The notes under the pieces were generated by a model that saw nothing but the letters and a program-made list of their open reading frames with translations, did not search any database and was not told the DNA's origin. 64,000 nt of DNA from a virus (lineage: Duplodnaviria; Caudoviricetes): the IMG/VR virus record IMGVR_UViG_2862830631_000005, positions 14,672-78,671 of that record. The stretch is one strand, 5' to 3'. Positions 294-48,500 of this stretch are shown piece after piece (positions within the stretch are counted from its first letter, which is position 1; each line of letters begins with the position of its first letter). The position numbers and the translations under genes are program-made.

Positions 294-601
294 GATTCGA
301 GCAGCTCCTTGATGATGTCGCCAATGAAGTGGTACGTCTTCGTGTGAATGGCCTTCTGGGATGTCTTAGCGCTCTGGTAGATCACGTCCACCTCGAAGTA
401 CACCGAGTCCGTGCCCTCTTCGCAGTAGCCGTTGAATGCAACATCGAAGATTGACCCGTAGCGCTCCCCAACCTCGGATAGAAGCCTGCACCCCAGGCGC
501 TTCGACATCGCATCGAAGCAACCCGGGATGAGGCGTTCCTCCACCGCGGTCACAGAAGGCCCTGACGCTTCAGAAGAGCCCAGATGAGCATCCCGAGCCA
601 C
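290..601 (-). CDS. hypothetical protein (start uncertain)
   Basis: ORF coupled to 87..293; the true start may be internal. Confidence 0.5.
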   Translation of the reverse strand: MARDAHLGSSEASGPSVTAVEERLIPGCFDAMSKRLGCRLLSEVGERYGSIFDVAFNGYCEEGTDSVYFEVDVIYQSAKTSQKAIHTKTYHFIGDIIKELLES

Positions 602-671
602 CGCCAGAAAGTGGGGTTTCCCATTGCCATGTCGAGTACATTACGGGCCCACCTGTTTCACTCCTGAACGC

Positions 672-698
672 AAAAAACCCCAGGTCAGAGACCTGGGG
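672..698 (-). terminator. intrinsic terminator closing the tRNA operon
   Basis: CCCCAGGT-ctctg-ACCTGGGG followed by T6 on the minus strand, just after the last tRNA. Confidence 0.85.
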
Positions 699-704
699 CT
701 GTTG

Positions 705-775
705 CAGTTCGTAGGGGACTCGAACCCCTACCTACAGATTGAGAATCTGGGATGCTGCCTTTACACCAACGAACC
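705..775 (-). tRNA. tRNA-Glu(CTC)
   Basis: GGTTCGT/ACGAACT acceptor, CAGA-TT-CTC-AA-TCTG anticodon arm, TTCGAGT T-loop. Confidence 0.85.
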
Positions 776-1114
776 ATTGCTGACGACCCACTGGCCGTCA
801 TCACGAACCTCCGTCTTAAGGTTCACCGGCCACATGTCGCGCTCAACTCGGGCCTTCAGAAGCGTCTCCTGGCCACACTGACGCTTCACCCATGTGCGGA
901 ACGTTGAGGTTTGCGCCATGCGCTTGAACGCCAACCGCTTGTTCTGCAACTGACTGCGCTCATCGCGAGCCTCACCAACGGCGCCGGAAGCCCTGTGAGT
1001 GACTCGGACACCGGTTTCCCGCTTGTTCTGATTCTGCCCACCCTTGCCGCCGGCACGAAATGTGTCGACCTGGCAGTCATCAAGGGTGACCGAGAATGCT
1101 AGTTCCATACTCAC
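761..1114 (-). CDS. peptide chain release factor-like / ArfB-type peptidyl-tRNA hydrolase
   Basis: FRAGGKGGQNQNK GGQ motif, GVRVTH, ERSQLQNK; 117 aa with no codon-recognition domains. Confidence 0.9.
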   Translation of the reverse strand: MSMELAFSVTLDDCQVDTFRAGGKGGQNQNKRETGVRVTHRASGAVGEARDERSQLQNKRLAFKRMAQTSTFRTWVKRQCGQETLLKARVERDMWPVNLKTEVRDDGQWVVSNGSLV

Positions 1115-1189
1115 GTCCCGACGACGGGATTTGAACCCGTGTATCCACCTCGACAGGGTGGCGTCCTGGGCCGCTAGACGACACCGGGA
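1115..1189 (-). tRNA. tRNA-Asp(GTC)
   Basis: CCACC-CT-GTC-GA-GGTGG anticodon arm; TTCAAAT T-loop. Confidence 0.9.
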
Positions 1190-1265
1190 TTGTTGGACTT
1201 GACGCGTACCTCACGGGTCAACTTTCTGGGAATCAAACCCTGGAGCTGCTTGACCAAAACTCCCG

Positions 1266-1339
1266 CATTCCGAGCGGGATTCGAACCCGCACTCTCCTGA
1301 GTGAAAATCAGGTGGGATGACCAATTACCCTATCGGAAC
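1266..1339 (-). tRNA. tRNA-Glu(TTC)
   Basis: CCTGA-TT-TTC-AC-TCAGG; TTCGAAT T-loop. Confidence 0.88.
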
Positions 1340-1345
1340 ACAATG

Positions 1346-1413
1346 TGGAGTACCGGGGAATCGGACCCCGCCTCTGAGTTTGCAAAACTCGGAGTCTCAC
1401 CAGACAGCACCCC
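1346..1413 (-). tRNA. atypical 68-nt tRNA-Ala(TGC)
   Basis: GGGGTGC/GTACTCC acceptor with G3:U70; mini D arm GTCT-GGTG-AGAC; TT-TGC-AA loop; TCCGATT T-loop. Confidence 0.7.
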
Positions 1414-1414
1414 G

Positions 1415-1531
1415 TTAAGCCGCCTTCCGGCGATGTGGACGACCGTGCCCCTTGTTGCGTGCTCCGTATGTTGGAGTCAACGCATGATGATTGGGGCACA
1501 GCACTCGCAGATTCGCCCGCGAGTTGTTGGT
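1415..1531 (-). pseudogene. HNH endonuclease C-terminal relic
   Basis: Translates TNNSRANLRVLCPNHHALTPTYGARNKGHGRPHRRKAA*; in-frame TAG a few codons upstream and no start codon. Confidence 0.75.
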
Positions 1532-1570
1532 GTAGGTCTCTTGACGGACCTATTGTGCAAAAAAGAGCTG

Positions 1571-1642
1571 AGCCCCTACGACGATTCGAACGCCGCACGC
1601 CGATTTACAAGATCGGAGCTTTTCCTACTAAGCTATAAGGGC
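1571..1642 (-). tRNA. tRNA-Thr(TGT)
   Basis: CCGAT-CT-TGT-AA-ATCGG; canonical T arm. Confidence 0.88.
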
Positions 1643-1643
1643 C

Positions 1644-1714
1644 TGGTAGCCGGTCAAGGAATCAAACCCTGCTTAGTTGGATGTAAGCCAACCTTCGTCT
1701 CAGACTAACCAGCC
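1644..1714 (-). tRNA. atypical tRNA-Val(TAC) with minimal D arm
   Basis: GGCTGGT/ACCGGCT-A-CCA; GGTTGG-CT-TAC-AT-CCAACT 6-bp anticodon stem; TTTGATT T-loop. Confidence 0.72.
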
Positions 1715-1715
1715 A

Positions 1716-1793
1716 TGGAGCATCCGCACGGAATCGAACCGAAACTTTCAGGGTGGAAGCCTGACGTGCTAGACCGTTAAACACTACGGACGC
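1716..1793 (-). tRNA. tRNA-Gly(TCC)
   Basis: TCAGG-CT-TCC-AC-CCTGA; ends in TCCA. Confidence 0.88.
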
Positions 1794-1813
1794 ATAGGTA
1801 TTCAATTATGTTG

Positions 1814-1880
1814 CGCGACAGGAGGGAGTCGAACCCCCATCCGACCGCTTAGGAGGCGGCTGGCCGTCCAGTGCTGCCGC
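1814..1880 (-). tRNA. atypical 67-nt tRNA-Arg(CCT)
   Basis: GCGGCAG/CTGTCGC acceptor; D arm with 4-nt loop; GCCGC-CT-CCT-AA-GCGGT; TTCGACT T-loop. Confidence 0.72.
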
Positions 1881-2043
1881 ATCGGACCTTGCTAATGATC
1901 TCCAAGTCCTCATACTCGCGGGACTCTTCGTAATCCCACTCGCGCCGCCACAGACGATCCTCAGCGGCCCGCTGACGCAACGCCAACATGTCACCGCCAC
2001 AACACCCTCGGCAACACGTCCTACGTCGCAGCATGGATGACAC
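1849..2043 (-). CDS. small hypothetical protein (Cys-rich N-terminus)
   Basis: GGAGGT RBS before GTG 2043 / ATG 2034; the ORF runs into tRNA-Arg(CCT). Confidence 0.5.
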   Translation of the reverse strand: MSSMLRRRTCCRGCCGGDMLALRQRAAEDRLWRREWDYEESREYEDLEIISKVRCGSTGRPAAS

Positions 2044-2056
2044 AGCTACCTCCAAG

Positions 2057-2131
2057 TGGTAGGGACACCGGGTACTGACCCCAGGATGCCGTCTTATCAG
2101 AACGGAGTGATAACCATTTCACTATGTCCCA
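2057..2131 (-). tRNA. tRNA-Ile(GAT)
   Basis: CCGTT-CT-GAT-AA-GACGG; ACCA end; non-canonical T-loop GTCAGTA. Confidence 0.8.
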
Positions 2132-2132
2132 G

Positions 2133-2206
2133 TAGGCCCAGAAGGAATTGAACCCTCGTCCCCGGATTAAGAGTCCGGTGCTATTCCCAACTTCAGCTAT
2201 AGGCCC
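2133..2206 (-). tRNA. tRNA-Lys(CTT)
   Basis: CCGGA-CT-CTT-AA-TCCGG. Confidence 0.9.
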
Positions 2207-2310
2207 ATATCCGGCAGTAACGGGGCCGGGGCCGAGTAGTCTTCAGCCACCCGATGGCCTACTACTACCTCTTTCGTCGTCGCGCCGGGTCAGGGCGGTC
2301 GGGATTTGCG

Positions 2311-2384
2311 TACTCGACGCGAGAGTCGAACTCGCAAGCACCTGAGTTTGAATCAGGCGGCTTTGCCGGTTTGCCTAGTCGAGC
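2311..2384 (-). tRNA. tRNA-Leu(CAA), short variable loop
   Basis: CCTGA-TT-CAA-AC-TCAGG; 5-nt variable loop. Confidence 0.85.
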
Positions 2385-2385
2385 A

Positions 2386-2859
2386 TTACGCCGCAGCTTT
2401 CCACGGCTTGTTTGTGTCGCACTGAGAATGACAGTTGGGACAGAGAAACCTCAGGTTCTCGGCGCGGTTATCGAGAGGGTTGCCGTCTATATGATCAATC
2501 TCCAGAACGATTGGAAGCCCCATCCATGAATCATCCAACCCGCATAGCTCACACACCGCTGGACGACCGATCTCGCTCAGTGCGCGGCGAAGGCGTTTGA
2601 CATCTTCACGGTTACTACCCTCAGGGCGAACCACAAGGATCTCAGTGGCCGCCTTTCGGCGGTTTGACGTCCCTCGACCGGCAGTCGTGTTTCGAAAGTG
2701 GCTTGTATCCAACCCCATGCGTACCACACGATTACGCATATGGAAGTGGCTACCGCCCGCCACCTTGATACCTAGTCTGCGGAGCACGTCTGACATCGAC
2801 GTGCAACTAGCGACCGCATCCGCCACCTGGGCGTCGGTATATGTTCTTTGTCTCCCCAT
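2386..2859 (-). CDS. HNH endonuclease
   Basis: CELCG...LEIDHIDGNPLDNRAENLRFLCPNCHSQ; N-terminal HTH-like region. Confidence 0.92.
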   Translation of the reverse strand: MGRQRTYTDAQVADAVASCTSMSDVLRRLGIKVAGGSHFHMRNRVVRMGLDTSHFRNTTAGRGTSNRRKAATEILVVRPEGSNREDVKRLRRALSEIGRPAVCELCGLDDSWMGLPIVLEIDHIDGNPLDNRAENLRFLCPNCHSQCDTNKPWKAAA

Positions 2860-2863
2860 TGCG

Positions 2864-2936
2864 TACCGAGGGCGGGGGTCGAACCCGCATACACCTGATT
2901 CTAAGTCAGGCGGCTCGCCAGATGGCCTACCTCGGC
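2864..2936 (-). tRNA. tRNA-Leu(TAG), short variable loop
   Basis: CCTGA-CT-TAG-AA-TCAGG. Confidence 0.85.
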
Positions 2937-2981
2937 ATATCGGGGAAGCCCCCGTAGTTCGGGATCCCCCCTGTGACCTAT

Positions 2982-3056
2982 TGGAACCGGGAGTCGGATC
3001 TGCACCGACGTAGGTCGGCTTTGCAGGCCGCCGCTTAACTACTCAGCCATCCCGGC
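2982..3056 (-). tRNA. tRNA-Cys(GCA)
   Basis: CGGC-CT-GCA-AA-GCCG; U73-CCA; T-loop TGCAGAT. Confidence 0.85.
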
Positions 3057-3311
3057 TTGTTCCCACCCCGGCCAATCATGGATGGTGGGAATGCGGCCCT
3101 GAGATCCATTCAGAGCCACGTTCACCTGCAGGGCGTAGGAAAGCCATGGACGAAGGTCATCCACGTCCTCTCCGTTGCCCTCAGCCTCATCTCTGGCAGC
3201 CTGCAGGATCTCTGCTATCTGCTGTCGACGGGCCACGACGGCCGGATGGCTGTTGAACCATTCGATCGCCGGCTGGAGAAACTTGGGATCTTCCTTCAGC
3301 AAGCCAGCCAT
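3039..3311 (-). CDS. hypothetical protein
   Basis: MAGLLKEDPKF... with upstream AGGGGA; the stop codon lies in the tRNA-Cys D-loop. Confidence 0.65.
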   Translation of the reverse strand: MAGLLKEDPKFLQPAIEWFNSHPAVVARRQQIAEILQAARDEAEGNGEDVDDLRPWLSYALQVNVALNGSQGRIPTIHDWPGWEQAGMAE

Positions 3312-3324
3312 CGTTTCCCCTAAG

Positions 3325-3398
3325 TGGTCAGACCGGACGGGCACGATCCGTCCCCTGCACAGTCACAGTGTGCAATGCTTCCGCTACACCACGGCCTT
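3325..3398 (-). tRNA. tRNA-His(GTG), atypical acceptor end
   Basis: GCACA-CT-GTG-AC-TGTGC; ACCA end; T-loop ATCGTGC. Confidence 0.78.
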
Positions 3399-3401
3399 GT
3401 G

Positions 3402-3474
3402 CGCCCCTGAAAGGATTCGAACCTCCACAGGCATGGCTTCGTAGGCCATCGCTCTTCCGTTGAGCTACAGAGGC
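3402..3474 (-). tRNA. tRNA-Arg(ACG)
   Basis: ATGGC-CT-ACG-AA-GCCAT. Confidence 0.9.
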
Positions 3475-3563
3475 AGTTGAGCTTTAACCATCTGCTTTAT
3501 TAGATTGCAGTTAGCGCAAAGGGTTTGATACCCTTCCGGCCAACCGCGATTCCTTAGCTGCTG
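3465..3563 (-). pseudogene. HNH endonuclease C-terminal relic
   Basis: Translates QQLRNRGWPEGYQTLCANCNLIKQMVKAQLPL*, an HNH-type P-x-GYQ-x-LC-x-NCN-x-x-K ending. Confidence 0.65.
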
Positions 3564-3792
3564 GCCGCTCCTGGCTAGCAGGAGCAAGCAAGCACAACGC
3601 TCGATGCAACCAAGTAGCAGCCGCTAAGAGCCCGCCATCCGGGTCGTCCACCGCATAACACGGCAGATCACCAAACTTCTCACGGTACATCTCGATAGCA
3701 GTGGCATGCCCGCCCTCATAAGACCAACCGATGAACGCGCACGCACGCTCAGCCTCAGCCGTAGAAGGCAAGGGCCCCCAGAAGTCAGGCAC
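3511..3792 (-). CDS. hypothetical protein
   Basis: GTG start overlapping the upstream ORF end; the C-terminus runs over the HNH relic. Confidence 0.5.
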   Translation of the reverse strand: MPDFWGPLPSTAEAERACAFIGWSYEGGHATAIEMYREKFGDLPCYAVDDPDGGLLAAATWLHRALCLLAPASQERPAAKESRLAGRVSNPLR

Positions 3793-4039
3793 GGCGCTGC
3801 CACCCATCCATTTCCATCTGACTGCGATGCGAACGGTGGTCGTCATCGTCATAACCAACCGAAACGCAAATCAGGTACCAACCCGGCTTAACCCAAAGCT
3901 CAAGGTTCTCGCCGTGAACATTTAACCCACTATCCTCGGCGACATACAGCAGGGCGTCAATCGACCGCTTAACAGCGTCGGGCGTCATAGCGCTATGACA
4001 GGCGTGATAAAAGAAATGCTTCTCAGGCACACTCGGCAT
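3785..4039 (-). CDS. hypothetical protein
   Basis: GGGGAG RBS then ATG (MPSVPEKHFFYH...). Confidence 0.55.
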   Translation of the reverse strand: MPSVPEKHFFYHACHSAMTPDAVKRSIDALLYVAEDSGLNVHGENLELWVKPGWYLICVSVGYDDDDHRSHRSQMEMDGWQRRA

Positions 4040-4086
4040 GAAACAACTCCCCCGCATACTCGGCGACCATCTTCTTTGATTCCATC

Positions 4087-4160
4087 TGGTTGCGCAGCTG
4101 GGATTCGAACCCAGAGCCTCGGCTTATGAGACCGAGATGTTCCCCTTACACTACCGCGCA
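4087..4160 (-). tRNA. tRNA-Met(CAT)
   Basis: TCGGT-CT-CAT-AA-GCCGA; ACCA end. Confidence 0.88.
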
Positions 4161-4216
4161 ATATCCGGATTGGTTCGCCTCTCACCGGCATCGAGGAGTG
4201 GTTTCCACTTCATACG

Positions 4217-4291
4217 TCGGAACGCTTGGATTCGAACCAAGGGCCTCCCGGGTTTCAACCGGGCGCTCTCACCTCACTGAGCTACGATCCG
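4217..4291 (-). tRNA. tRNA-Phe(GAA)
   Basis: CCCGG-TT-GAA-AC-CCGGG. Confidence 0.9.
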
Positions 4292-4369
4292 AGGAGTCCC
4301 ACCCATTCATGCCAGCCCCTCTGGCAACCTGTATTCACTCTTAGTGGCCACCAGGCGGGTGGGGGTAAG

Positions 4370-4496
4370 CGGAGGGCTGTGGGCACGATCCACACGGGTT
4401 GTCTACCGCGCACCCCTTAGCAGGGGGCCCCAGCTCCCTGGCTGGTTAGCTCTCCAAAGTTCCCGGTCGCTCTGCCAGTTGAGACGTATACCCCTG
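4370..4496 (-). ncRNA. tRNA-like RNA with expanded anticodon arm
   Basis: D-arm-like CTC-AACTGGCA-GAG, ACCG/CGGT stem enclosing two hairpins, T arm TGTGG-ATCGTGC-CCACA. Confidence 0.45.
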
Positions 4497-4555
4497 ACGC
4501 ACCAACAGTCCTTCGCGCGAACTAGGTGTTGGCTCCCACCGTGCACGGCAGGCGA

Positions 4556-4716
4556 CGAGGGCAGGTGGATTCGAACCACCAACCACCAGTTGCGAAGAGC
4601 GGAGGTCTTGATCCCCAAGCAGCATCACCTGCTACCCGGTATTCGACACCGGTCGGGGCACTCGCCCCTGCTTCACTCTCCAGATGCCGGTCGAGTTGCT
4701 TTTACCCTGCGCCTCC
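4556..4716 (-). ncRNA. outer tRNA-like shell enclosing tRNA-Ser(CGA)
   Basis: GGAGGCG/TGCCCTC acceptor, GGGT/ACTC D stem, ACCGG/CTGGT anticodon stem, perfect GGTGG-TTCGAAT-CCACC T arm. Confidence 0.55.
4593..4681 (-). tRNA. atypical tRNA-Ser(CGA)
   Basis: GGAGAGT/GCTCTTC-G acceptor; CCGGT-GT-CGA-AT-ACCGG; long variable arm AGCAG/CTGCT; divergent D and T arms. Confidence 0.72.
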
Positions 4717-4738
4717 CCGGCTTGTGGCGCAGCATGTG

Positions 4739-4812
4739 TGGAGTCACCGAGGCTTGAACTCGGCTCTGCTGGACTGCGAATCCGGCGTTTTACCTTGTTA
4801 AACTACAACCCC
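4739..4812 (-). tRNA. tRNA-Ala(CGC)
   Basis: GGGGTTG/TGACTCC with G3:U70; TT-CGC-AG loop. Confidence 0.85.
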
Positions 4813-5039
4813 ATTGTGCGGTTTCGGGTGTCGCGATTCACCCTACCGAGAGGTCCGCTATCTCGGATCCGTGGTTGGATAACACAGCCAGCGGCATCGG
4901 ACTGCGACCCCGTAAATTAACGTCACCAGGGATCAGGGCGGGTAGTTATCCGATCTACCAACGGCTAGTTCGGTCCGGCCCAGTTTTAACCCGCTCGGGC
5001 CGGGGGTGGGAAGCAGTTTGAATTGATGCTCAACAATCG

Positions 5040-5111
5040 CTGGAAACCCTGGATTCGAACCAAGAATGACGGGTTCAGATCCCGTAGTGTTGCCGGTTAC
5101 ACCAGTCTCCA
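5040..5111 (-). tRNA. tRNA-Gln(CTG)
   Basis: ACGGG-AT-CTG-AA-CCCGT; U1-A72 and G73. Confidence 0.87.
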
Positions 5112-5393
5112 ATGCTGGAAAGGCATTTCGGTCGGCCCACCTCTCCACTGGCCGGTGGGCAGTCGATTCGGGGTCGAGCCCCTCCCTCGTCTGTGTTCCC
5201 CACTAGGACTGGCCTTGCGAGCAGGGGCCCTCATGTTGGTGTCGCAAGCCACGAACGGGTGCCCCGTCAGTCCCAAGATTGGAGACGCTTAGTTCAGTAG
5301 GCCCAGCGTCACTGCCTACACGATCCCAGGCTGGGGACGGTCCTACTTTCCCTCACCGTGCCCACGGGTGGGAGTGGTACCTCTCGTGTGTTG

Positions 5394-5470
5394 TCTCGCC
5401 GTGAGGAGTCGAACCTCCACACCCGAAGGAAGGGCTTTACAGGCCCCGTTGCTCACCTATGCGCGACGAG
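5394..5470 (-). tRNA. tRNA-Tyr(GTA), reduced D arm
   Basis: CTCGTCG/CGGCGAG-A; GGGC-CT-GTA-AA-GCCC; CC-TTCG-GG variable arm. Confidence 0.8.
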
Positions 5471-5763
5471 ATTGGAGGTGCGGCCTACAGACAAATACCG
5501 CACTACCACGCCATTTCACCGGATTATCGTTTCCCGGCTTGTCCCCCAGATCCCTCCAGGAGGCGCGTACGCCTGGTCCTTGTGAACCACTGTTCATGTC
5601 GAAAGCTACTCTGCGGCGTTCCCTTCGCCGTTGGGATGGCCGTCCCATGGCTGCAGTACTGACCTACAAACAGGATCCGCCTTGCGGGCTCGTCCTGCCC
5701 CGATTCTGCTCCACAGTCGGGGATTAAGGCGCTTTAACTCTTCGACAGGGAAAGTCTTTTGCT

Positions 5764-5839
5764 TGGATAACATCACAGGAATTGAACCTGCGACCTTCTG
5801 TTCTCAATACAGATGCTCTACCAATTGAGCTAGATGTTG
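5764..5839 (-). tRNA. tRNA with TGA anticodon (nominally Ser) on a class I body
   Basis: Canonical D and T arms; TCTGT-AT-TGA-GA-ACAGA; 5-nt variable loop; C1:A72 mismatch; U73-CCA. Confidence 0.75.
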
Positions 5840-6242
5840 TGACCGGAGACGTGCTTCCCCATGAAGGTCCGTAACCTTTTGAGCTACAGAATGCTTCACG
5901 CCTCTCGCGCTTCAGGCTGGCGACCTGTTTCGCGCTCTCCCTCAACCGCATGCGAGCCGTCGCCCGTCGCGAGATCGGTCATGGAACCCGCCTTCGCCTG
6001 CCAGGGCTCTGACTCAGTTCCTTCCGCACCCACACCAGCCTTAGTCGATAACACTTTCGGGCCTACGTTAGGTCATGGTGTCCTCAGCACGTTGCCGTTG
6101 GACCATGTGTACCTCGGTGGCGCACCGCCCCTTCGAGGACGGTGTCGGGTTGTGGATTGCATGGATTGCCCTCACGGGTGGCGAGCTGTCACACTCACCT
6201 TTCAGTGCCTTACGGCACCTTATCGGCCATGCCCGAAATCTT

Positions 6243-6346
6243 GATGGGGCCTGGATTCTAACCAGGATCTCCAGGGAATGCCACGTCCGGACGTGGGGCC
6301 TGGGCTCTACCGGGGATCAAGCCGGCTGATCTTGAGCTACACCCTC
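6243..6346 (-). ncRNA. tRNA-like RNA lacking an anticodon loop
   Basis: TA-GCTC...GGTA-GAGC D arm with an inserted hairpin; CCAGG/CCTGG stem capped by CCACGT-CCGG-ACGTGG; T arm CCTGG-TTAGAAT-CCAGG. Confidence 0.6.
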
Positions 6347-6347
6347 G

Positions 6348-6420
6348 CTGGTCCGCCAGGATTCGAACCTGGAACTTCCTGGTTAACAGCCAAGCGTGTT
6401 GCCGGTTACACCACGAACCA
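6348..6420 (-). tRNA. tRNA-Asn(GTT)
   Basis: CTTGG-CT-GTT-AA-CCAGG. Confidence 0.88.
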
Positions 6421-6576
6421 ATGATTGCCGCCAAACCAGGTGGGGGGAGCTTTTGACCGCACGATGGCGGGGTGGCTGTTATGTCACCCGGTTTGGTAAG
6501 TCTTTCCCACCAGTGTGACGACAGGTGGGCGTGCCGGTCCTAAACGGACACACTCAGTTGACACTTTTTCATTGCG

Positions 6577-6648
6577 TCGGGAAGCACAGACTCGAACTGC
6601 GTACGCCCGCATCCGAAGCGGCCATGTTTACCTTTACACCACATCCCG
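6577..6648 (-). tRNA. tRNA-Pro(CGG)
   Basis: CCGC-TT-CGG-AT-GCGG; C1-G72, A73. Confidence 0.87.
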
Positions 6649-6722
6649 ATTGGAAGCATGGCGGATGGAGTGGGCTCTGTACCATCTCTTACCTATGGCC
6701 ATTCCCGACCATGCTTCACGAG

Positions 6723-7160
6723 TGGAGCTGGCGGGAGTCGAACCCGCGTCTTACGTTCTTCGTACTCAGTCTTCTACGTGCGTAGTCCAGACAGGTGTAA
6801 TCCCAGCCAGCTACTGGACATACGGCTGCGGATTTGCTTCGGATTTACCCCCGAGTGGGCTGCAATTTTAGCCTACGGGTGCGCGGGCGCTACGGTCTGC
6901 CAACCATTCCTGCGGTCCCCGTATTAGCGACGCTGGATTGGTAGACGGAACGGGTAAACCGCTCTACCCCAACGGACTTCAGCTAGGCTGCGACGAGAAA
7001 CTCAGCCTCGATGTCCTCAACGGAGAAATCGAGCTCAGCTTCCCAGGCAGCGAAGTCAGCATCAGTATCGACTGCGCTTAATTTGTTTTGCACTGTTACG
7101 GGCGTTGCATCCCGGCACGCTTCCCTGGACTCTGTTCGCAATCGAAACCAGAACAGCCCC
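6723..7160 (-). ncRNA. ssrA: tmRNA
   Basis: 5' GGGGCTGTTCTGGTTTCGA; 3' GGGTTCGACTCCCGCCAGCTCCA with G3:U70; tag frame 7075..6983 AVDTDADFAAWEAELDFSVEDIEAEFLVAA*. Confidence 0.95.
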
Positions 7161-7205
7161 ATGAAACTTACTTGATATCCACTATTTAGTTCTCAAAGTA
7201 CTGAG

Positions 7206-7276
7206 CAGGGTCGGAGGGATTCGAACCCCCATAAGCGGCTTTGGAGACCACGGTCCTGCCGTTGGACGACAACCCT
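7206..7276 (-). tRNA. tRNA-Trp(CCA)
   Basis: GTGGT-CT-CCA-AA-GCCGC. Confidence 0.9.
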
Positions 7277-8997: not shown

Positions 8998-9504
8998 TCA
9001 CGCCGCCAGCTCCGGATAGAACGTCCTCATGAACCCAGCAGATGACTTGTCGAGATCCTCCCAGTCGGTGAGGTTCCGCTCATAGACCGACTGGGCATCG
9101 TTCGCCTCGAAACCGGGGCGCTTCACCTGATGAATCCACTCCAGGTTCGAAGCCGCAGTGTTGGTGACATCCCCATCCTTGAAGCGGATCGTGGAGGCTT
9201 GCCGGCCGAACGGCGGCTCACCATGGAATGCCAGAGCCACCAGGAATGCCACGCGCTGCGCACGCGGAACAGCGGGCTTCCCAACCCGTGGGATCTGCAC
9301 GTTCACATACATGTGCGCAATGTTCGTGTTGTGCTTCCGCAGATACGGCTTCAGGATCTGCTCAGAGAACCTGCGGATGTACGGATTCTCGGAGTGTGGG
9401 CTGTGAACGACGAGCTCATAGGGCAGCCGGCGAACCTCGCCATGCCTGGACGCTTCGAAACGGTGAGGGATGCCGGGAATCTTCCGCCATTCCGTCAGTT
9501 CCAC
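8998..9504 (-). CDS. NUMOD4/HNH-like protein, catalytic His apparently lost
   Basis: WRKIPG...EASRHGEVR; RVAFLVALAF; IRFKDGDVTNTAASNLEW. Confidence 0.7.
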   Translation of the reverse strand: MELTEWRKIPGIPHRFEASRHGEVRRLPYELVVHSPHSENPYIRRFSEQILKPYLRKHNTNIAHMYVNVQIPRVGKPAVPRAQRVAFLVALAFHGEPPFGRQASTIRFKDGDVTNTAASNLEWIHQVKRPGFEANDAQSVYERNLTDWEDLDKSSAGFMRTFYPELAA

Positions 9505-9992
9505 GAAGCTACCTCGGCGGCGAACGCCGGGTTGCACAGCACCGCGGGGGAGCGCACATTGCGGAGATGGGCGACGATGTCTGCGCCGCTCATACCGCCC
9601 TGCATGTAGAGGGCCCTGGCTGTCACCAGGGACGACCGATTCAGTCCAGCCTGGCAATGCACCAGAACAGGCCCATCCTTGCGGCACACGTTGATCCAGG
9701 TGGCAATGGCGTCGATCTGCTCGAACCCCTGGTAGACGGAGTCGTACATTTCGACATAGAGCTCTGAGCTGATCTCCCGCGCCATCTCGTAGCGCTCCCA
9801 CGGGTACACCGACACAACGTGATCGATGTCCTCAGGGAGCATCAGCCCGTCAGCGCATCCGCCCTGCCAGAGGTTGTCGCCGATGTAGGAGATGTACGGC
9901 ACATCGAACGGCGTCAGGCCATGCGTCGCAACACCGGAGATGCGCTGAACGCGCGGGTCGTACTCGATATCGATTGCTGTTGGGTCAGCCAT
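9495..9992 (-). CDS. dual-specificity/tyrosine phosphatase family protein
   Basis: VLVHCQAGLNRS (HCx5R) motif. Confidence 0.9.
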   Translation of the reverse strand: MADPTAIDIEYDPRVQRISGVATHGLTPFDVPYISYIGDNLWQGGCADGLMLPEDIDHVVSVYPWERYEMAREISSELYVEMYDSVYQGFEQIDAIATWINVCRKDGPVLVHCQAGLNRSSLVTARALYMQGGMSGADIVAHLRNVRSPAVLCNPAFAAEVASWN

Positions 9993-42568: not shown

Positions 42569-45500
42569 TTAAACGCCGTACTTGCCGATGTAAGGCATCG
42601 CTTCCTGCGCAGCGGTTGTGCGCTGCTGACGCTTGAACTCGTCAAGGTTCGTCAGCTGATAGACGTTGTCGCCGTTGTGAACACGGCCCTGAACCATCGA
42701 AGGAACGCCCGAGGTATCTGGCTGGGCCGGCAGTAGGGGAGTGCCAGATGCACTTGCAGTTGATCCGTTCGTCGCAGTTCCCACGAGCAGCGACGACAAG
42801 ACGTTCGTCAAGCCAGTTGCGATCTGGCCGCCGATCTGGAATCCGGCCTGAATGCCAGCCCCGGCGAGCTGCCCACCAGCGCCACCAGCGAGTCCGCCTG
42901 CGCCGGCAGTCGCGCCCATCGAGGCTCCAGACGCGGCCATCGATGCAGCGGTAGCCACGAGAGACCCGACATGGTTCCACGCACCCTGAATGCCTGAACT
43001 CAACGCAGGGAGGTTGTGCTCCTGCGATGAAGGTGCAGCACCAAGGCTTGCCCGAGGGTCAGCCGACTGCGACGCATCAGCGCCAGGCTGTGCCGAACCA
43101 ACGCCGCCGGTTCCCGAGAGCAGCCCAGCCAGGCCACCGACGTTCGTCAGTGCGTCCTGCACGCCAGGGAGAGCACCAGGGTCTGGAGCGGGAGCAGTCG
43201 CCCCAGGCCCCGGTGCACCTCCGGTCGAAGGGGTGGTGCCAGCACCAGCCCCAAGTGTGAGAGGCCCGGGAGTAGCGGGCTGCGGAACGCCTGGCTGCTG
43301 GCCTGGCTCAGGTGGAGCGGGAGGCTGCGGCGTCTGCGGGAGCGGACCTGGAGTCTGCCCCGGGTAAGGCTGCGGCATCCACCAGCCGCCACCCTCGAAC
43401 TGGCCGGCGTTCACCAGATGCATGAAGTCCAGGCCGTACTTCTTCACGGCGTAGTCGCGCATCATGAACTCGCCCTTGGACCCCATCAGTGGGACAGAGT
43501 CCGAGCGCCCAGTGCCAGGCCCGGTGATCAGTCCACCGCCGGCCTTACCTGGAATAGGTAGCCCAAGCTGTGGCGGATTCCACTGCGCGAAGACCCGGGC
43601 ACCCCTACCCTCTGGTCGCACATCGAAAGGCGTGTAGCTGCCACCGCGTGGAAGTAGGAGCTCATTCTCTGCTCGCCCGAAGTGCGAGAGAGACTCGCGT
43701 CCAGCACGTCCAGACAGCCACAACCCGTGGGAGCCGCGCGGTACAAGCAGCTGCATTACATACGGCGAAGGACGCCCACCAGCGCCGACACTGGTTGATG
43801 TGTATCCGGGATCGGAGAATGTGCGGCCGAGCAACCTGGTCAGGTCGTCATTGGGGTGGATGTTCCCGAAGCCGGCTGCGTCGAGCTCGCGGTTGACAAC
43901 GAAGTCGTCCGGTACGCGGTTTGCCTTCCCGAACGCGCTGTCAATCCCGGCTACCTGCCGCAGATGCTCTGATAGCGCGTCACTGCCGACCAGGTGACCC
44001 TTGCCGCTGGCAAGCGCTCGGAGCGTGCCGTTGACACCAGACCCCTTTGTGTACCCGTAGATGGCGTCGAGCTCGGCCGGAGTGAACGGGTTGTCCGACT
44101 TGCTGTACGGCCAGATATCGTTCGCGTACGCCCGCGCCCTGCCGAGATCCATCGCATCCGGGGCGGTGTGCGCGTGCGCAGGGGTGGCACCCTTCAGGAA
44201 TCCGCGACGTGCAGCACTGCTCGCCACCGAGCCTGCACGTGTTCCCTTCAGTGCCGCGCCACCAGGAACGAACGCCGACGCGATGTCAAACGCGGACATA
44301 CCGGCCGCGCGAGCAGGGTTACGACCCCACTCATCCCAGTGGACGGTGTTCTTACCGAACTGCCTCCACGCATCCCCAACAGATGGGGAACCGCCTCCAC
44401 CGAGCCCAACAAGTGGTGCTAGACCGCGTGCAGCGCCACCGACCGCCATGGCTGGGTTGCCGACAGCCTGGTAGATCCCCTTACCTGCATCCCAAGCCGA
44501 GGACCCGACGCCGCCGAGGAAGTCTCCGACCTTTCCGAAGAACCCTCCACCCGAGAAGCGTGGTAGCCGGCGAGCGTTCAGATCATCGAACAGCTGCTTG
44601 CCGTAGTAGCGGGTGGCATCCCTATTGGTGACGAACTCACCACGCGACAGCCACGCCAAACCACTATTCGGATGACCACCGCTCTTGAACCCGTGCCCCT
44701 GGCCGATCTGGTTTGGAACGCCAGTGTTCGGGTCCTGCCCGTACTGCGACTTCGTGTAGGCAATCGCCGCGACGATCTGAGACCACGGGTCATTGATCGA
44801 TCCGCCGACAGCGTTGTAGGAGTCAAACGTCGATGGCAGGAAGTTGAACAGACCCATGACCTGCTGGGTTCCGCCCTGTCCGTCGGAGTCATTCCCGTTG
44901 AACGAGAACGGATCACCGCCAGACTCAGTATCGATCTGCTTGACGAGAGCGTTCTCCCACGCGGCAGCGTTGGTGATTCCAAGCTGAGGCCCGTACATCT
45001 GCAGCGCCTGACGGATCATGGCGCGATAAGCGTTTCCGCCCTTCTTGCCAGGTGAAGCGAGACCACCGCCCTGCTGAAGAAGGTTGTCGTTGAATGCGAT
45101 CGGCTGGATAGGAAGACCAGTCGAAGGGTCAACCTCGATAGGCAGCTGCCCGTTGCCGTACAGGAACTGGTTCAGGTACTGCCCTGATCCACCGTCACCA
45201 ACGACATTGCCGAGTCCGCCGATGCCCTGCTGGAGCAGCTGCGAGAAGACATCCCCACCGCCGCCACCTGAGGAACCGCCAAGGTTCAGCCACCCTGACG
45301 CTGCCTGGCCGGCGCCATTGCCCACCTGTCGGGTGAGATCAGCAAGCCAATTGAAGTTGATCCCAGTGAGGTCGGTGAGCAGCTGCGTGCCGATCCCGAG
45401 CAGGCTGGAACCGATATTCCCAGCCTGGCCAACCAGGAACTGGGCGATGTTCGAAGGCTGCATAAAGTCGGGCAGCCCAGCGATATTCCCGAAGAGGCCG

Positions 45501-48500
45501 CCGCTGGAATCTCCAGTCAGCATGTCAGCAGTGACGCCGCCAGGTAGTCCACCCGGGTACTGCTGCATCAAACCTGGCAGCATGTACTGCTCGGCCCCGG
45601 TTGGGTAACCACCTCCAGTGGTCTTCACGTGAATGTGATCGCGATGACCCTGCGTATCGCCAGAACGGCCCAACGCATGGCCGTCCCCACCCACTGGCTG
45701 CCAGAAGTCCTGCCAGATGGTGGAATCCACGCCCATGGCAGCACCGTTGGCCTGAAGCCACTGGTTGATCTGATCTCCGAGCGCCTTACCCTCTGGGGTG
45801 TTGTAGTTCGGGATCATGATGTCGATGGCCTTGCCAGACGGGTGATCCTCGATGGCGTCCTCGCGGTAGCCGCCGATGTTCGCGATCTGTGGGAACATCG
45901 CTTCGACCGCGCGCTTCACGCCGATCGTGTTGACCTGCAGGTTGCCCTCACCGCCCAGGCGTGACTGCAGCGGCACGCCTGCCATCTGACCGCCGACGCT
46001 GGCCAGTGGGTTCATCAACCCGGCCACGGGGATCCCGTTGATCTGCGGCATGCCGGCAGCTGCGACCACGCCGGGGATTACCGGGGTGATGCCGGCGTTA
46101 TTGACGCCCGGGTATCCGCCAGTTAGGTGCGTGCTCGACACGGTCGACGCAGGGGGTGCCGAAACAGGCCCTGGCTGCCCCTGAGGAGCTCCAGAACTGT
46201 TTGCTGGGGTGGTTGGCTTAGGGGACTGAACTGGAGGCGCAGGAGTGGCCTCAGGGGCCTTCGGTGAAACTCCCGGAGTCAACCCAAGGAAGTCCTTCGC
46301 ATATGCGTCGAAGAACCCACGAGGACGTGAACCTGGAGCACCACTCTGGCCGAGGTCATACCCATGCTGGGCATCCAAAGCGCTACGCGACAACTTCGTG
46401 TTCGCGTACGGTGGCTTCTCCCAGTTAGGAGTGATATCAACCGGCCCAGCCTTAGTGGCAAGGTTGTCCTCATACCAGTGCCAGCCCTGCTTGATTGAGT
46501 CAATGGCAGCACGGCCGAAAGTCACGCGCTCATCCATGCGCGTAGAGCTGTTGGCAACACCCGCCTTGTTCTTAGGCTGAGGGCGATCCAAAATCGACGG
46601 AGTGACAGGACCGAACCATCCACCCGAGTCGAAGCGCGGAAGCTCCATACCATTCAGGCGGTTAAAGAAGTCGACGCCGTAGTACTTCACCGCGGCTGCA
46701 TTGGTCACATGCTCACCGCGCGACAGCATCGCCAGGTTCGCATCATCGCGAGGGCCGCCGACGCCACCAACAAGGCCACCATCGGCGAACTTGTCAATGT
46801 ACTTCTCGGTACCGTCAACAGTGAGGTTCGTGCGGAAACGTCCATCACCGTTCGGTGCGACAGTCCCATCCTCGGCCGGCACAGCAGGCTTGCGGTCAGT
46901 GATGACGACCGCATTGCCGGCATCATCGATATGAACCTCAGAAACACCAGAGCCGGCGAACACGCCAACACCTGGCTTCACCGACCCGAGGCCGTTGGCA
47001 AGTGTGTTCACCTGCTGGGCCTGCGCGGCACCAGCGCTCAAGCTGTTCGGGATGTCGCGCAACGCAGATAGCGACGCAAAGAGATCGCCCTGGCCGGTCG
47101 ACTTCACCACGCCCTGAAGGTCATCCGGGAGGTTTCCAGTCGCACGCTTTCCAGCGATAACCCCCTGCTTAGCTACTTCAGGTAGCCAGGACGGAATGTT
47201 TTGGTCAACGAGCATCGCTGAGTACGCAGCGCGAACCTTGTCGAGTGCCTTCTGGTCCGTACTGGCTGCAAGTGCTAGATCACGAGCACTGACGCCGTAC
47301 TTCTCCCAGATATCACCCGACTTCTTCCAAGAATCCGAGTTCTGGACGGCCTTCGTTGCCATGTCGTTGCCGCGCTGAAGAACGCTCTGACGCTCGGCGT
47401 CGTTGATCGGCAGGAGGGCCCGACCGAACTGGTTAGGGCCAGCGAGCCCAGAACGGGCAGCCGCATCAATCGTGTTGACCTGGCCCTGGCCCTGGAACGT
47501 GAACGTCTGGGCAGCCTGCAACGCGGCAGCCTTGTCAGCCGAACCCGTAGTCTGATCTACGGTCGTCTGCAGCTGCTTCAGAGCCTCGTTATGGGCATCG
47601 GCATCCTGCGCAGCCTTACGGTGAGCATCACCGAGAGCGCTGATACCCAAGGTCAGTGCGGAGATTGCAGCCGAGAAAGCAAGACCTGGGCCGATGAACA
47701 ACCCGAGCCCCTTCAGGGCGCCGAGAAGCGATCCACGCCCAGCGCTACCGATCTTCCCGGCAGCGACGACGGCTGCCCCGCCGGCATTCTCGAACTGCTT
47801 CGTCAGATCCTTCGTTGACGACAACGCTGGGAAGGCAGCCTTGTCGACATTCTTCACAGCCTCGGCCGACAACTTGATCGGCTTAGCGGCACCAGCTGCA
47901 ACCCCGCCCAGCGACTGCAAATTCGCCTTGAACTCGTTCAGCCCACGGTTCATCGGACCGAAGAAGTTCGAGGTGCGGTGATACTGGGCCAGACCGCCCA
48001 TCACCTTGCCGTAGTTCTGCCACGCAGTGGTCAAACCCTCAACGATCGGGCGAGCAGTACGCCACGACAGATAAGCGATCAGCAGGTTCTTCGCCAGGCC
48101 AGTGTTCTTCTCGACCCATCCGGCGATCTTCGAGAACGTTCCCAGCACCGAGAAGAGGACAGTGGACCATTCGCGTGCGGTCTCAACCATGTCCCCGATG
48201 AACGGACGCATATCCTTGACGGCGGACAGAATCTGACCGACAAGATCGCGTGCACGTGAGAAGTAGTTAGTCAACCCCTGCTGGGTCGAAGGCTCCTTCA
48301 GGAAGTCAGCCAGCCTCGACGTAGCGCGCTCGATGGTGGTGATGAAACCGCCCTCGAACCCGGTGGTCTGCGCGAATGCACGCGACACCGAGGAGATGAT
48401 CGAAGCGATGTTCAACAGCGTGTTGCCAAGCGCAGTAAGCGAATCAAGACCAGAGTCGATCCACTCATTCAGCGTCCCGTCATCGGAAACTCGCTGAGTG

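Follow-up and report, generated by a model that had tools for sequence, protein, structure and literature searches.

What RNA is encoded on the minus strand between positions 6241 and 5112 of the window, and where does it end? The window is the whole stretch of DNA that was analysed, 64,000 nucleotides long. An earlier note on this DNA had drawn a single structured RNA of approximately 1.1 kb here, a GOLLD member or a longer related class, with two tRNAs held inside its own stems. The locus belongs to the known GOLLD family as an unexceptional member, and its variable loop holds one tRNA-like piece. Very probably it is a GOLLD gene of ~764 nt in the tRNA/tmRNA array of a prophage related to cluster M phages, and its RNA would be released by tRNA processing and self-assemble into a cage. 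tRNA-Tyr and the 5112-5392 stretch are separate neighbours of this gene.

Searching the region against Rfam models, as the earlier note had suggested, returned GOLLD (RF02032) at 5476-5904 on the minus strand. The match scores 162.1 bits against a curated gathering threshold of 150 bits (E 1.3e-43) and covers model positions 1-416 of 416. This bears out the proposal of a large, structured, GOLLD-like noncoding RNA. ROOL and raiA, which had also been named as candidates, give no Rfam match within 4800-6700 at E <= 1; that interval holds only GOLLD, tRNA and weak tRNA-Sec and sR47 matches at this cut-off. At the gathering threshold, the whole window contains only GOLLD, tmRNA and tRNA. All 12 fetched relatives are also GOLLD-positive, at 182-216 bits, and the window copy, 12 bits over the cut-off, scores lowest among the 13 loci. 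It is the sole GOLLD copy in its 6.23-Mb genome, and an Rfam GOLLD search of 151 genomes of the genus gave one match, in this same genome. We assign the locus to GOLLD on four grounds: a score above the curated threshold, the two-domain layout, a position within a phage tRNA array and the tRNA in its linker.

The array in the window comprises 21 tRNA genes and a tmRNA, all on one strand. Terminase, portal, capsid, tape measure, DnaB and HNH proteins are encoded as well, and the host element is a prophage related to cluster M mycobacteriophages. The 12 relatives used for comparison are plasmid pCBMA213_1 and 11 cluster M phages or M. abscessus prophages (phages Bongo, PegLeg, Rey, Reindeer, Estes, Aziz, MrMagoo and Nanosmite; prophages prophi86-1, prophiT49-2 and prophiGD54-2). 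The phages and prophages are the nearest relatives of the locus, at about 71-80% identity. The window and its cluster M relatives have a common gene order: tmRNA, tRNA-Asn, GOLLD, tRNA(s), tRNA-Tyr, spacer and tRNA-Gln. In the window, unlike in these relatives, tRNA-Tyr comes immediately behind GOLLD, the linker cloverleaf is complete and includes its CCA, the last hairpin is longer, and the spacer carries an insertion.

Features of the GOLLD locus and its surroundings, in positions of the window
Feature	Position	Strand	Remarks
GOLLD RNA, whole gene	5476..6239	-	~764 nt; 3' part by Rfam match, 5' boundary by alignment of 13 homologues
GOLLD 5' domain	5907..6239	-	333 nt; less conserved, structured; homologous in 13/13 sequences
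GOLLD conserved 3' domain	5476..5906	-	RF02032 match
Basal helix of first 3'-domain hairpin, 5' strand	5898..5904	-	pairs with 5846-5852
Basal helix of first 3'-domain hairpin, 3' strand	5846..5852	-	includes the GTCT of the earlier note
Linker-closing helix, 5' strand GGGGAAG	5854..5860	-	
Linker-closing helix, 3' strand CTTTCCC	5748..5754	-	
tRNA-like cloverleaf, anticodon UGA	5764..5839	-	ARAGORN; Rfam tRNA 61.6 bits (cut-off 29)
Long-range helix, 5' strand TGTCGAAGAGTTA	5735..5747	-	Rfam consensus structure
Long-range helix, 3' strand TAGCTTTCGACA	5597..5608	-	Rfam consensus structure
GGCC palindrome in hairpin loop	5638..5641	-	Rfam model positions about 233-246
tRNA-Tyr(GUA)	5393..5470	-	outside GOLLD; ARAGORN at 95% threshold; homologous to annotated tRNA-Tyr of cluster M phages
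Variable spacer	5112..5392	-	not GOLLD; ends in conserved 45-nt motif (about 5115-5160)
Degenerate tRNA-like element	6242..6346	-	abuts GOLLD 5' end; Rfam tRNA 24.6 bits (cut-off 29); cloverleaf-like fold
HNH endonuclease gene near GOLLD	8998-9801		

The extent of the RNA was read from a full-length alignment of 13 sequences, the window and its 12 relatives. The homologous 5' domain begins at 6239-6241 in all 13, and the upper bound of 6241 proposed earlier is thus a true 5' boundary. This end directly abuts a tRNA in Bongo, PegLeg and CBMA213. At the other end, the distance from GOLLD to the start of the next called or annotated tRNA is 4-13 nt at 12 of 13 loci and 81 nt in Reindeer. The final hairpin of the window RNA (GUGCGG...CCGCAC) is longer than that of the relatives and unlike it. 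The relatives span 708-782 nt; the window RNA lies inside this range, and a length of ~1.1 kb is not supported. Nor is the longer related class with two tRNA cargoes, since the length is ordinary and tRNA-Tyr is external.

RNAalifold predicted 152 pairs from the 13 full-length sequences, and 65 of these change on both sides. Within the 5' domain, both-side changes occur in 22 of 47 predicted pairs. The helix that had been drawn to close this domain, TTTCGGGC/GCCCGAAA, is not confirmed: 67% of its cells are paired, and 5 to 10 of the 13 sequences do not form its inner pairs. It competes with a local hairpin (6236-6233 with 6226-6223) that covaries at 2 of 4 pairs. A 3-bp pairing of the 5' end with the last loop (alignment columns 5-7 and 814-816), also from RNAalifold, was rejected; its one both-side change occurs in the window only.

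Helices of the 3' domain were tested in 27 homologous sequences by counting the share of paired cells and the pairs changed on both sides. The basal helix of the first hairpin, part of the Rfam structure, is paired in 100% of cells and covaries at 3 of 7 pairs. The linker-closing helix is paired in 189 of 189 cells, covaries likewise at 3 of 7 pairs and is predicted independently by RNAalifold. To judge by model positions and the wording of the papers, it is probably P15 of the published numbering. This is the bracket that the earlier note had placed across the UGA tRNA: the helix exists and covaries, but the register was one base off and the GTCT/AGAC extension is not part of it. As first drawn (GGGAAG-CAC-GTCT with AGAC-TTTCCC), the bracket is paired in only 72.6% of cells, a level matched by 369 of 500 shuffles. 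Its pair 5849-5755 forms in 1 of 27 sequences, and the GTCT pairs in the Rfam basal helix with 5904-5898, not with AGAC. The other proposed domain-closing pairing, TGTCGAAGAGTTA/TAGCTTTCGACA, turned out to be the Rfam long-range helix. It is paired in 90.1% of cells, with both-side changes in 8 of 12 pairs; one of the pairs proposed in it, 5736-5607, forms in only 2 of the 27 sequences.

These helices bear on whether the gene is intact. A rival view is that it has lost its function and is decaying among tRNA pseudogenes, a GOLLD remnant that persists only because it is linked to the tRNA array. None of the 12 other loci scores as low (162 bits vs 182-216), and its neighbours include degenerate tRNA-like sequences, namely the element at 6242-6346 (24.6 bits) and a tRNA-Tyr under default thresholds. 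The linker tRNA, moreover, is truncated in Bongo, PegLeg, Reindeer, MrMagoo and Aziz and deleted in Nanosmite. Against decay, all Rfam helices are present in the window without truncation (model 1-416), and at the tested helices the window keeps pairing by both-side changes of its own. In the long-range helix, for example, it has T-A against C-G in the others, and in the 5' hairpin C-G against G-C. We therefore consider a remnant very unlikely and an intact GOLLD gene the better reading.

Could the RNA run on through tRNA-Tyr to 5112, as one ~1.1-kb GOLLD-like RNA (6241-5112) with both tRNAs in its own stems? The earlier note was probably right that a tRNA-Tyr(GTA) is present, although ARAGORN finds it only at the 95% threshold. 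Default ARAGORN and the Rfam tRNA model miss it; its D arm is weak, and Rfam lists only tRNA-Sec there, at 27 bits (cut-off 47). In the window just 5 nt separate it from the GOLLD 3' end, a 6-bp complement (GTGGTA/TACCAC) lies on either side of it, and parts of 5112-5392 are ~75% identical to cluster M phages. The complement, however, is at chance level. When the GOLLD tail was searched against the 40 nt after tRNA-Tyr for complements of at least 6 bp, 782 of 2000 shuffles had one, and 0 of 8 relatives keep this bracket at the homologous place. In 7 of the 8 relatives, other tRNAs or an HNH gene put 81-465 nt between GOLLD and tRNA-Tyr. The last GOLLD hairpin is the end of the Rfam model and of all relatives, and tRNA-Tyr begins 5 nt past the 3' end, so it lies outside the RNA. 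The spacer beyond it ranges from 114 to 289 nt among relatives, with large indels, and in the window carries an insertion of ~110 aligned columns that has no counterpart in them. The 5112-5392 stretch folds no better than its shuffles (z +0.67; 147 of 200 fold as well) and, being variable in length too, is dropped from the RNA. We give the 1.1-kb RNA almost no credence. One of its two tRNA cargoes, the internal UGA element, stands; the other, tRNA-Tyr, lies past the 3' end.

Less credible still is a small protein from the 52-aa minus-strand ORF at 5896-6054, equivalent to the 'hypothetical protein' CDSs of cluster M phages: the ORF matches phrog_37980 (E 1.2e-08), and in five relatives a CDS of 38-47 aa is annotated across these conserved nucleotides, but the same-frame open stretch shrinks to 35 aa in Nanosmite and to 23 aa in both prophi86-1 and prophiT49-2, lacks a start codon in prophiGD54-2 and varies in its starts, ends and both termini among the remaining relatives, while 0 of 5 ORFs tried have a Pfam match and the nucleotides fall in covarying RNA helices. 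The phrog_37980 ORF was accordingly rejected as a gene, not being conserved among relatives.

The GOLLD gene thus contains a single tRNA-like module, the TGA-anticodon tRNA of the earlier note, which ARAGORN and Rfam both find inside the GOLLD match. The module is 76 nt long including an encoded CCA, with a 5-nt variable loop (AGGTC) and a C1/A72 mismatch. Bacterial seryl-tRNA synthetase needs the long variable arm of class II tRNAs. The UGA module is without such an arm, and its ARAGORN label 'Ser' is based on the anticodon alone. Across the 27 sequences the linker is 43-111 nt long, and ARAGORN calls a tRNA in 14, the window included. A comparison of 10 homologous linker tRNAs shows both-side changes that preserve the cloverleaf in 15 of 19 pairs. 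The anticodon, meanwhile, is of nine types in the linkers whose cloverleaf is kept by compensatory changes, and the module is lost in other lineages. A pairing of the anticodon loop with the loop of the first hairpin (UUGA/UCAA) was considered by eye and rejected; it looked feasible in Rey, the prophages and the window, but not in Bongo, Estes, MrMagoo or CBMA213.

How might the RNA be made? No terminator-like site lies from GOLLD to the downstream tRNAs, and a strong one is found at 700-676, past the last tRNA. Transcription probably runs through the whole array as a single unit, which would end at this hairpin. A promoter-like site at 6284-6255, just upstream of GOLLD, could give the gene a transcription start of its own; overall, the sigma-70 scan does no better than chance (4 sites vs 2.8 +/- 1.7 expected), and neither does the terminator scan (9 vs 7.4 expected). 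The enzymes that process the flanking tRNAs would then release GOLLD; RNase P would presumably make its cut where tRNA-Tyr starts, 5 nt past the GOLLD 3' end.

PMC12286853 describes GOLLD as a 14-mer cage with the unresolved linker inside, in which tRNAs are sometimes present, and a symmetric kissing loop formed by L21a. L21-L21'' contacts are reported in reviews and surveys (PMC12990946, PMC6582537). By homology to the solved structures, the window RNA may self-assemble into a closed homo-oligomeric cage. Its GGCC loop is taken to be L21/L21a, a mapping drawn from model positions and the papers' wording; through this loop, one copy would meet another in a symmetric kissing contact. On the same analogy, the linker and the tRNA-like module in it would face the cavity.

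The loop varies among the 27 homologues, with palindromes GGCC, AGCT, CGCG and TTGCAA. Five of six distinct loop versions are self-complementary over at least 4 nt (counted per sequence; composition-matched shuffles reach this in 22-38%), and in the loop class CTTGCTA, carried by three homologues, only GC is self-complementary. Because shuffled loops give a palindrome of at least 4 nt in 22-38% of trials, the loop evidence is suggestive only. A speculative and rather doubtful extension is that the kissing-loop palindrome acts as an assembly 'barcode' of the actinobacterial GOLLD clade, switching between GGCC, AGCU, CGCG and UUGCAA while self-complementarity is kept, and that the cages show tRNA-shaped modules. 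If true, a GOLLD that shares a cell with those of other phages or prophages would assemble cages solely with copies of its own type. Up to about a dozen modules, with the cloverleaf conserved and the anticodon free, would be on show in each cage, and the tRNA-shaped module would be cargo or decoy, not a decoding tRNA.

The locus holds little new biology; GOLLD in Mycobacterium tRNA arrays and the linker tRNA are both already published. Morgado et al. 2020 (RNA Biol 17:1001) is reportedly a source on GOLLD in the tRNA arrays of Mycobacterium and Mycolicibacterium. A literature search on GOLLD in mycobacteriophages found no relevant paper. The practical value lies in annotation: unlabelled GOLLDs, CDS calls inside GOLLD, and phrog_37980. 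At this locus, none of the 11 GenBank records for cluster M phages and prophages has a GOLLD feature annotated, and five of them place a 'hypothetical protein' CDS inside it. The variety of palindromes and the conservation of the cloverleaf could help research on GOLLD cages. Cluster M phages grow on Mycobacterium smegmatis mc2 155 and are therefore a tractable system for a GOLLD knockout.

Several known systems resemble this locus. ROOL is phage-borne, forms cages and lies near tRNA islands, which is the same setting and presumably the same kind of assembly; it differs in that no ROOL model matches the window at the gathering threshold. The copy on pCBMA213_1 is homologous in both the 5' and 3' domains, with only ~70% identity in the 3' domain, and lies on a plasmid, whereas the window GOLLD sits in a complete prophage-like gene set. 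As in the Mycobacterium arrays described by Behra et al. 2019 (PMC6582537), the tRNA cluster around GOLLD is large, was acquired horizontally and has an HNH endonuclease close by. A tRNA or pseudo-tRNA within the GOLLD gene is likewise common to the window and the Mycobacterium/Mycolicibacterium arrays. PMC12990946 and PMC6582537 describe a tRNA in J13/15 of a Mycolicibacterium GOLLD and, in a cluster of 32 tRNAs in Mycobacterium, a GOLLD that contains a pseudo-tRNA and gave a weak Northern blot signal. The linker tRNA reported for a Mycolicibacterium GOLLD in PMC12990946 is tRNA-Phe, whereas the anticodon in the window is UGA.

PMC12286853 and PMC12990946 give the GOLLDs solved by cryo-EM as a 14-mer cage for env-38 and 10- and 12-mers for Streptococcus agalactiae. 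The window RNA belongs to the same Rfam family and has the same conserved 3' domain, separate 5' domain and linker, and a GC-centred self-complementary loop at what is taken to be the L21/L21a position. It differs in a much higher G+C content and in a linker that holds a tRNA-like module. Its 5' domain is 333 nt long, compared with 420 nt in env-38, and its loop palindrome extends over 4 nt (GGCC), where the paper on a solved GOLLD describes a GC/CG dinucleotide.

The window carries a further member of the GOLLD family, with every testable feature of that family. The Rfam model matches along its full length and above its gathering cut-off of 150 bits. An earlier note had described an approximately 1.1-kb GOLLD-like RNA at 5112–6241, a GOLLD member or a longer related class with two tRNAs within its own stems, and had proposed a search with the GOLLD, ROOL and raiA models. 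That search found GOLLD, and even a permissive run (E <= 1) over 4800–6700 gave no match to ROOL, raiA or other large-RNA families. Alignment from the upstream tRNA to the Rfam match revealed a homologous 5′ domain in 13 of 13 sequences. This domain begins ATTT(C/G)GGGCATGG, position 6239 in the window, so the upper boundary of 6241 was right. In Bongo, PegLeg and the plasmid of CBMA213 the start directly adjoins the upstream tRNA, and in the window it is preceded by a degenerate tRNA-like element. The match ends at 5476, which places the lower boundary of 5112 too far by about 360 nt. At 764 nt the window RNA falls within the 708–782 nt of the 13 sequences, which argues against a longer class.

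The second proposed cargo, tRNA-Tyr(GUA), lies outside the RNA. This gene is probably real but weak. It is 78 nt long with a poor D arm, is called by ARAGORN only at the 95% threshold, and shares homology with the gene that the relatives' records annotate as tRNA-Tyr. It starts 5 nt past the GOLLD 3′ end in the window and 10 nt past it in Nanosmite; in seven other relatives the gap is 81–465 nt and holds tRNA-Arg, tRNA-Ala or tRNA-Gln, or an HNH gene. Since the gap varies and is filled by other genes, tRNA-Tyr is a neighbor and not a cargo. The helix proposed across it, GTGGTA/TACCAC, is at chance level: when the last 45 nt of GOLLD were compared with the 40 nt after tRNA-Tyr for Watson–Crick complementarity, 782 of 2000 shuffles reached at least 6 bp. 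The best matches in eight relatives are 4–6 bp, all at non-homologous places. A longer class with two cargoes was thus rejected. HNH genes occur here in two relatives, inserted between the tRNA after GOLLD and tRNA-Tyr in PegLeg, and beside tRNA-Phe just after GOLLD in prophiT49-2.

The 5112–5392 spacer beyond tRNA-Tyr folds no better than shuffled sequence (z +0.67). It measures 114–289 nt among relatives, with large indels, and part of the window's copy has no counterpart in them. Only the last ~45 nt are conserved, as a motif found once per genome just 5′ of tRNA-Gln(CUG) in the window and seven cluster M phages, and absent from the M. abscessus prophages. In Reindeer, the motif's stem CGGC/GCCG is CCGC/GCGG.

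Helices were examined on 13 full-length sequences (mean identity 75%) and on 27 3′ domains. The latter include 15 new ones, kept after dropping six copies of phages already in the set, one truncated sequence and one duplicate from those found by a clade-specific 25-base pattern in five genome contigs and 18 viral contigs. On the full-length alignment RNAalifold predicts 152 pairs, 65 of them changed on both sides; because clade members are related, all such counts overstate the number of independent events. For the 5′ domain alone the figure is 22 of 47. Taken singly, the window's RNA has a minimum-free-energy fold modestly more stable than those of shuffled sequence (z -1.84, equaled by 1 of 20 shuffles). 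The proposed TGTCGAAGAGTTA/TAGCTTTCGACA stem is the Rfam consensus long-range helix, paired in 90.1% of cells (one helix pair in one sequence) with 8 of 12 pairs covarying among the 27 sequences. The 5′-domain stem TTTCGGGC/GCCCGAAA is not confirmed, with 67% of cells paired on the full-length alignment and inner pairs failing in 5–10 of 13 sequences. The same bases form a local hairpin (6236–6233 with 6226–6223; 90.4% of cells). Two of its four pairs covary, one being GC in 12 sequences versus CG in 1, the other GC in 9 versus AU in 4. In the RNAalifold prediction its loop, GCAUGG, pairs with CCAUGC, an invariant stretch lying 75 nt farther downstream.

The bracket drawn around the UGA-anticodon element exists, but shifted by one base. 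As written, it pairs in 72.6% of cells, a value reached by 369 of 500 shuffles, and a one-column slide of these pairs scores higher (85.6%). Its GTCT/AGAC portion fails, and one of the pairs there is restricted to a single sequence among the 27. The corrected helix, GGGGAAG (5860–5854) with CTTTCCC (5754–5748), is paired in 189 of 189 cells and is independently predicted by RNAalifold. Three of its seven pairs changed on both sides, giving GGAAGAG/CTCTTCC and GGAAAAG/CTTTTCC in two of the homologous loci (L017 and L022). GTCT instead belongs to a basal helix with 5904–5898 (100% of cells paired, 3 of 7 pairs covarying). The two helices cross and therefore form a pseudoknot, the linker-closing one being absent from the Rfam structure line. 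Judging from the terms used in PMC12286853 and PMC12990946 ('J13/15', and 'L15' for a construct starting at P14), P13 is probably the basal helix and P15 the linker-closing one.

The UGA element sits in the variable linker of GOLLD, which is 43–111 nt long among the 27 sequences. Its variable loop measures 5 nt, positions 1 and 72 are mismatched (C1/A72), and the CCA is encoded. Bacterial tRNA-Ser has a long variable arm; this element lacks one, so a 'Ser' label rests solely on the anticodon. ARAGORN called a linker tRNA in 14 of 27 sequences, with anticodons UGA, GGA, UAG, GUG, CUG, UUG, AUG and CAU and an irregular loop in six calls. The remaining 13 have a truncated or degenerate element or none at all; in Bongo and Reindeer, for instance, the 3′ acceptor strand is missing, and in Nanosmite the entire element. 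Across 10 aligned linker tRNAs, possibly not all orthologous, 15 of 19 cloverleaf pairs changed on both sides, and almost every sequence has a different anticodon loop. These comprise nine of the 14 called plus that of CBMA213, with five near-identical prophage copies left out.

Coordinates of features in the window and in homologous loci
Feature	Position	Strand	Remark
Terminator-like hairpin	676-700	-	strong; 11 pairs then T run; directly after tRNA-Glu
tRNA-Glu	704-775	-	
tRNA match without ARAGORN call	1814-1880	-	Rfam, 32.7 bits
tRNA match without ARAGORN call	2060-2131	-	Rfam, 42.7 bits
Conserved 45-nt motif	about 5115-5160	-	
tRNA-Tyr(GUA)	5393-5470	-	
GOLLD (RF02032)	5476-5904	-	162.1 bits, E 1.3e-43, model 1-416 of 416
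UGA element	5764-5839		61.6 bits as tRNA (Rfam)
ORF in GOLLD 5′ domain	5896-6054	-	phrog_37980, E 1.2e-08
Degenerate tRNA-like element, 105 nt	6242-6346	-	between tRNA-Asn and GOLLD 5′ end
Promoter-like site	6255-6284	-	GTGGCA, 18-nt spacer, TAGAAT
tmRNA	6720-7160		Rfam 104.7 bits, gathering threshold
HNH endonuclease gene	8998-9801		
Tape measure ORF	42569-49813	-	aa 1876-2061: phrog_3895, E 1.9e-20
HNH gene, PegLeg (L002)	1455-1832		
HNH gene, prophiT49-2 (L010)	352-732		
Annotated short CDS, L002	2349-2492		
Annotated short CDS, L003	1975-2118		
Annotated short CDS, L006	1336-1479		
Annotated short CDS, L008	1736-1852		
Annotated short CDS, L012	1701-1829		

ARAGORN called 21 tRNA genes from 704 to 7276, every one on the minus strand. 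Counting tRNA-Tyr and both Rfam-only matches as well brings the array to at least 24 tRNA-like genes. Elsewhere in the window lie genes for a terminase large subunit, portal, major head protein, 2414-aa tape measure protein, minor tail protein and DnaB-like helicase, besides the HNH endonuclease. With such genes in the window, the array is placed in a prophage-like element. The phrog matched within the tape measure ORF is labeled ADP-ribosyltransferase exoenzyme toxin. The host genome (6.23 Mb, bacterial, 210 contigs) has one GOLLD copy, and none turned up when 150 further genomes from its genus were searched with Rfam.

With 5112–6346 as query, blastn matched 101 phage records. Of these, 32 Mycobacterium phage records cover 40–75% of the query at about 71–80% identity, and in the other 69 the match is confined to a ~58-nt tRNA part. 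The relatives are cluster M mycobacteriophages (Vilmaviridae per the records) and M. abscessus prophages, along with one plasmid, pCBMA213_1 of Mycolicibacterium sp. CBMA 213. All 12 relative loci that were analyzed have GOLLD above the cut-off (182.4–216.4 bits), and none of the 11 phage records has a GOLLD feature at the locus in its GenBank annotation. Five annotate a 'hypothetical protein' CDS within the GOLLD 5′ domain. The frame of the equivalent window ORF is not kept open among relatives, so these short CDSs look like mis-annotations of the RNA gene.

Morgado et al. 2020 is reportedly devoted to GOLLD in Mycobacterium tRNA clusters. PMC6582537 and PMC9569102 describe horizontally acquired clusters of this kind in which GOLLD occurs along with an HNH endonuclease; they also record a pseudo-tRNA within the GOLLD gene and a weak Northern signal for the RNA.

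The 5′ start of GOLLD meets the end of a tRNA or tRNA-like element, and in 12 of 13 loci a tRNA begins 4–13 nt past the 3′ end of the RNA. A terminator scan found no terminator-like site between GOLLD and the downstream tRNAs; the strong hairpin after tRNA-Glu is likely the end of the array's transcription unit. Given this arrangement, the simplest reading is that tRNA-processing enzymes would cut GOLLD out of a polycistronic precursor. Three A+T-richer GOLLDs from IMG/VR contigs (L028, L030 and L031), which carry the clade-specific pattern, have a hairpin and T run 3′ of the RNA instead of a tRNA. The window's 5′ neighbor scores 24.6 bits as an Rfam tRNA, below the cut-off of 29, and has a cloverleaf-like fold in which the D loop contains a hairpin and the anticodon arm is long. 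Within its altered T loop lies the -10 box of the promoter-like site, some 15 nt upstream of where GOLLD begins; the promoter scan was overall at chance. In Rey, Reindeer and Aziz the equivalent slot holds a Y RNA-like (YrlA) match below the cut-off of 69 (43.6, 31.9 and 30.9 bits).

At the model positions that probably correspond to L21/L21a, the window has a hairpin with loop CGGCCA. Among the 27 sequences, five of six distinct loop versions are self-complementary, with palindromes GGCC, AGCT, CGCG and TTGCAA; the sole exception, CTTGCTA in the same three contigs, retains GC only. Shuffled loops give a 4-nt palindrome in 22–38% of trials, so the loops are suggestive of a symmetric kissing contact, not proof. 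In PMC12286853 and PMC12990946, cryo-EM shows GOLLD as closed homo-oligomers (env-38, a 14-mer; S. agalactiae, 10- and 12-mers), with the linker inside the cage and half-shells joined by a symmetric L21/L21a kissing loop. Role ideas there include storage of the embedded tRNA, encapsulation and ribosome binding. By likeness to these solved GOLLDs, the window RNA may assemble into a homo-oligomeric cage.
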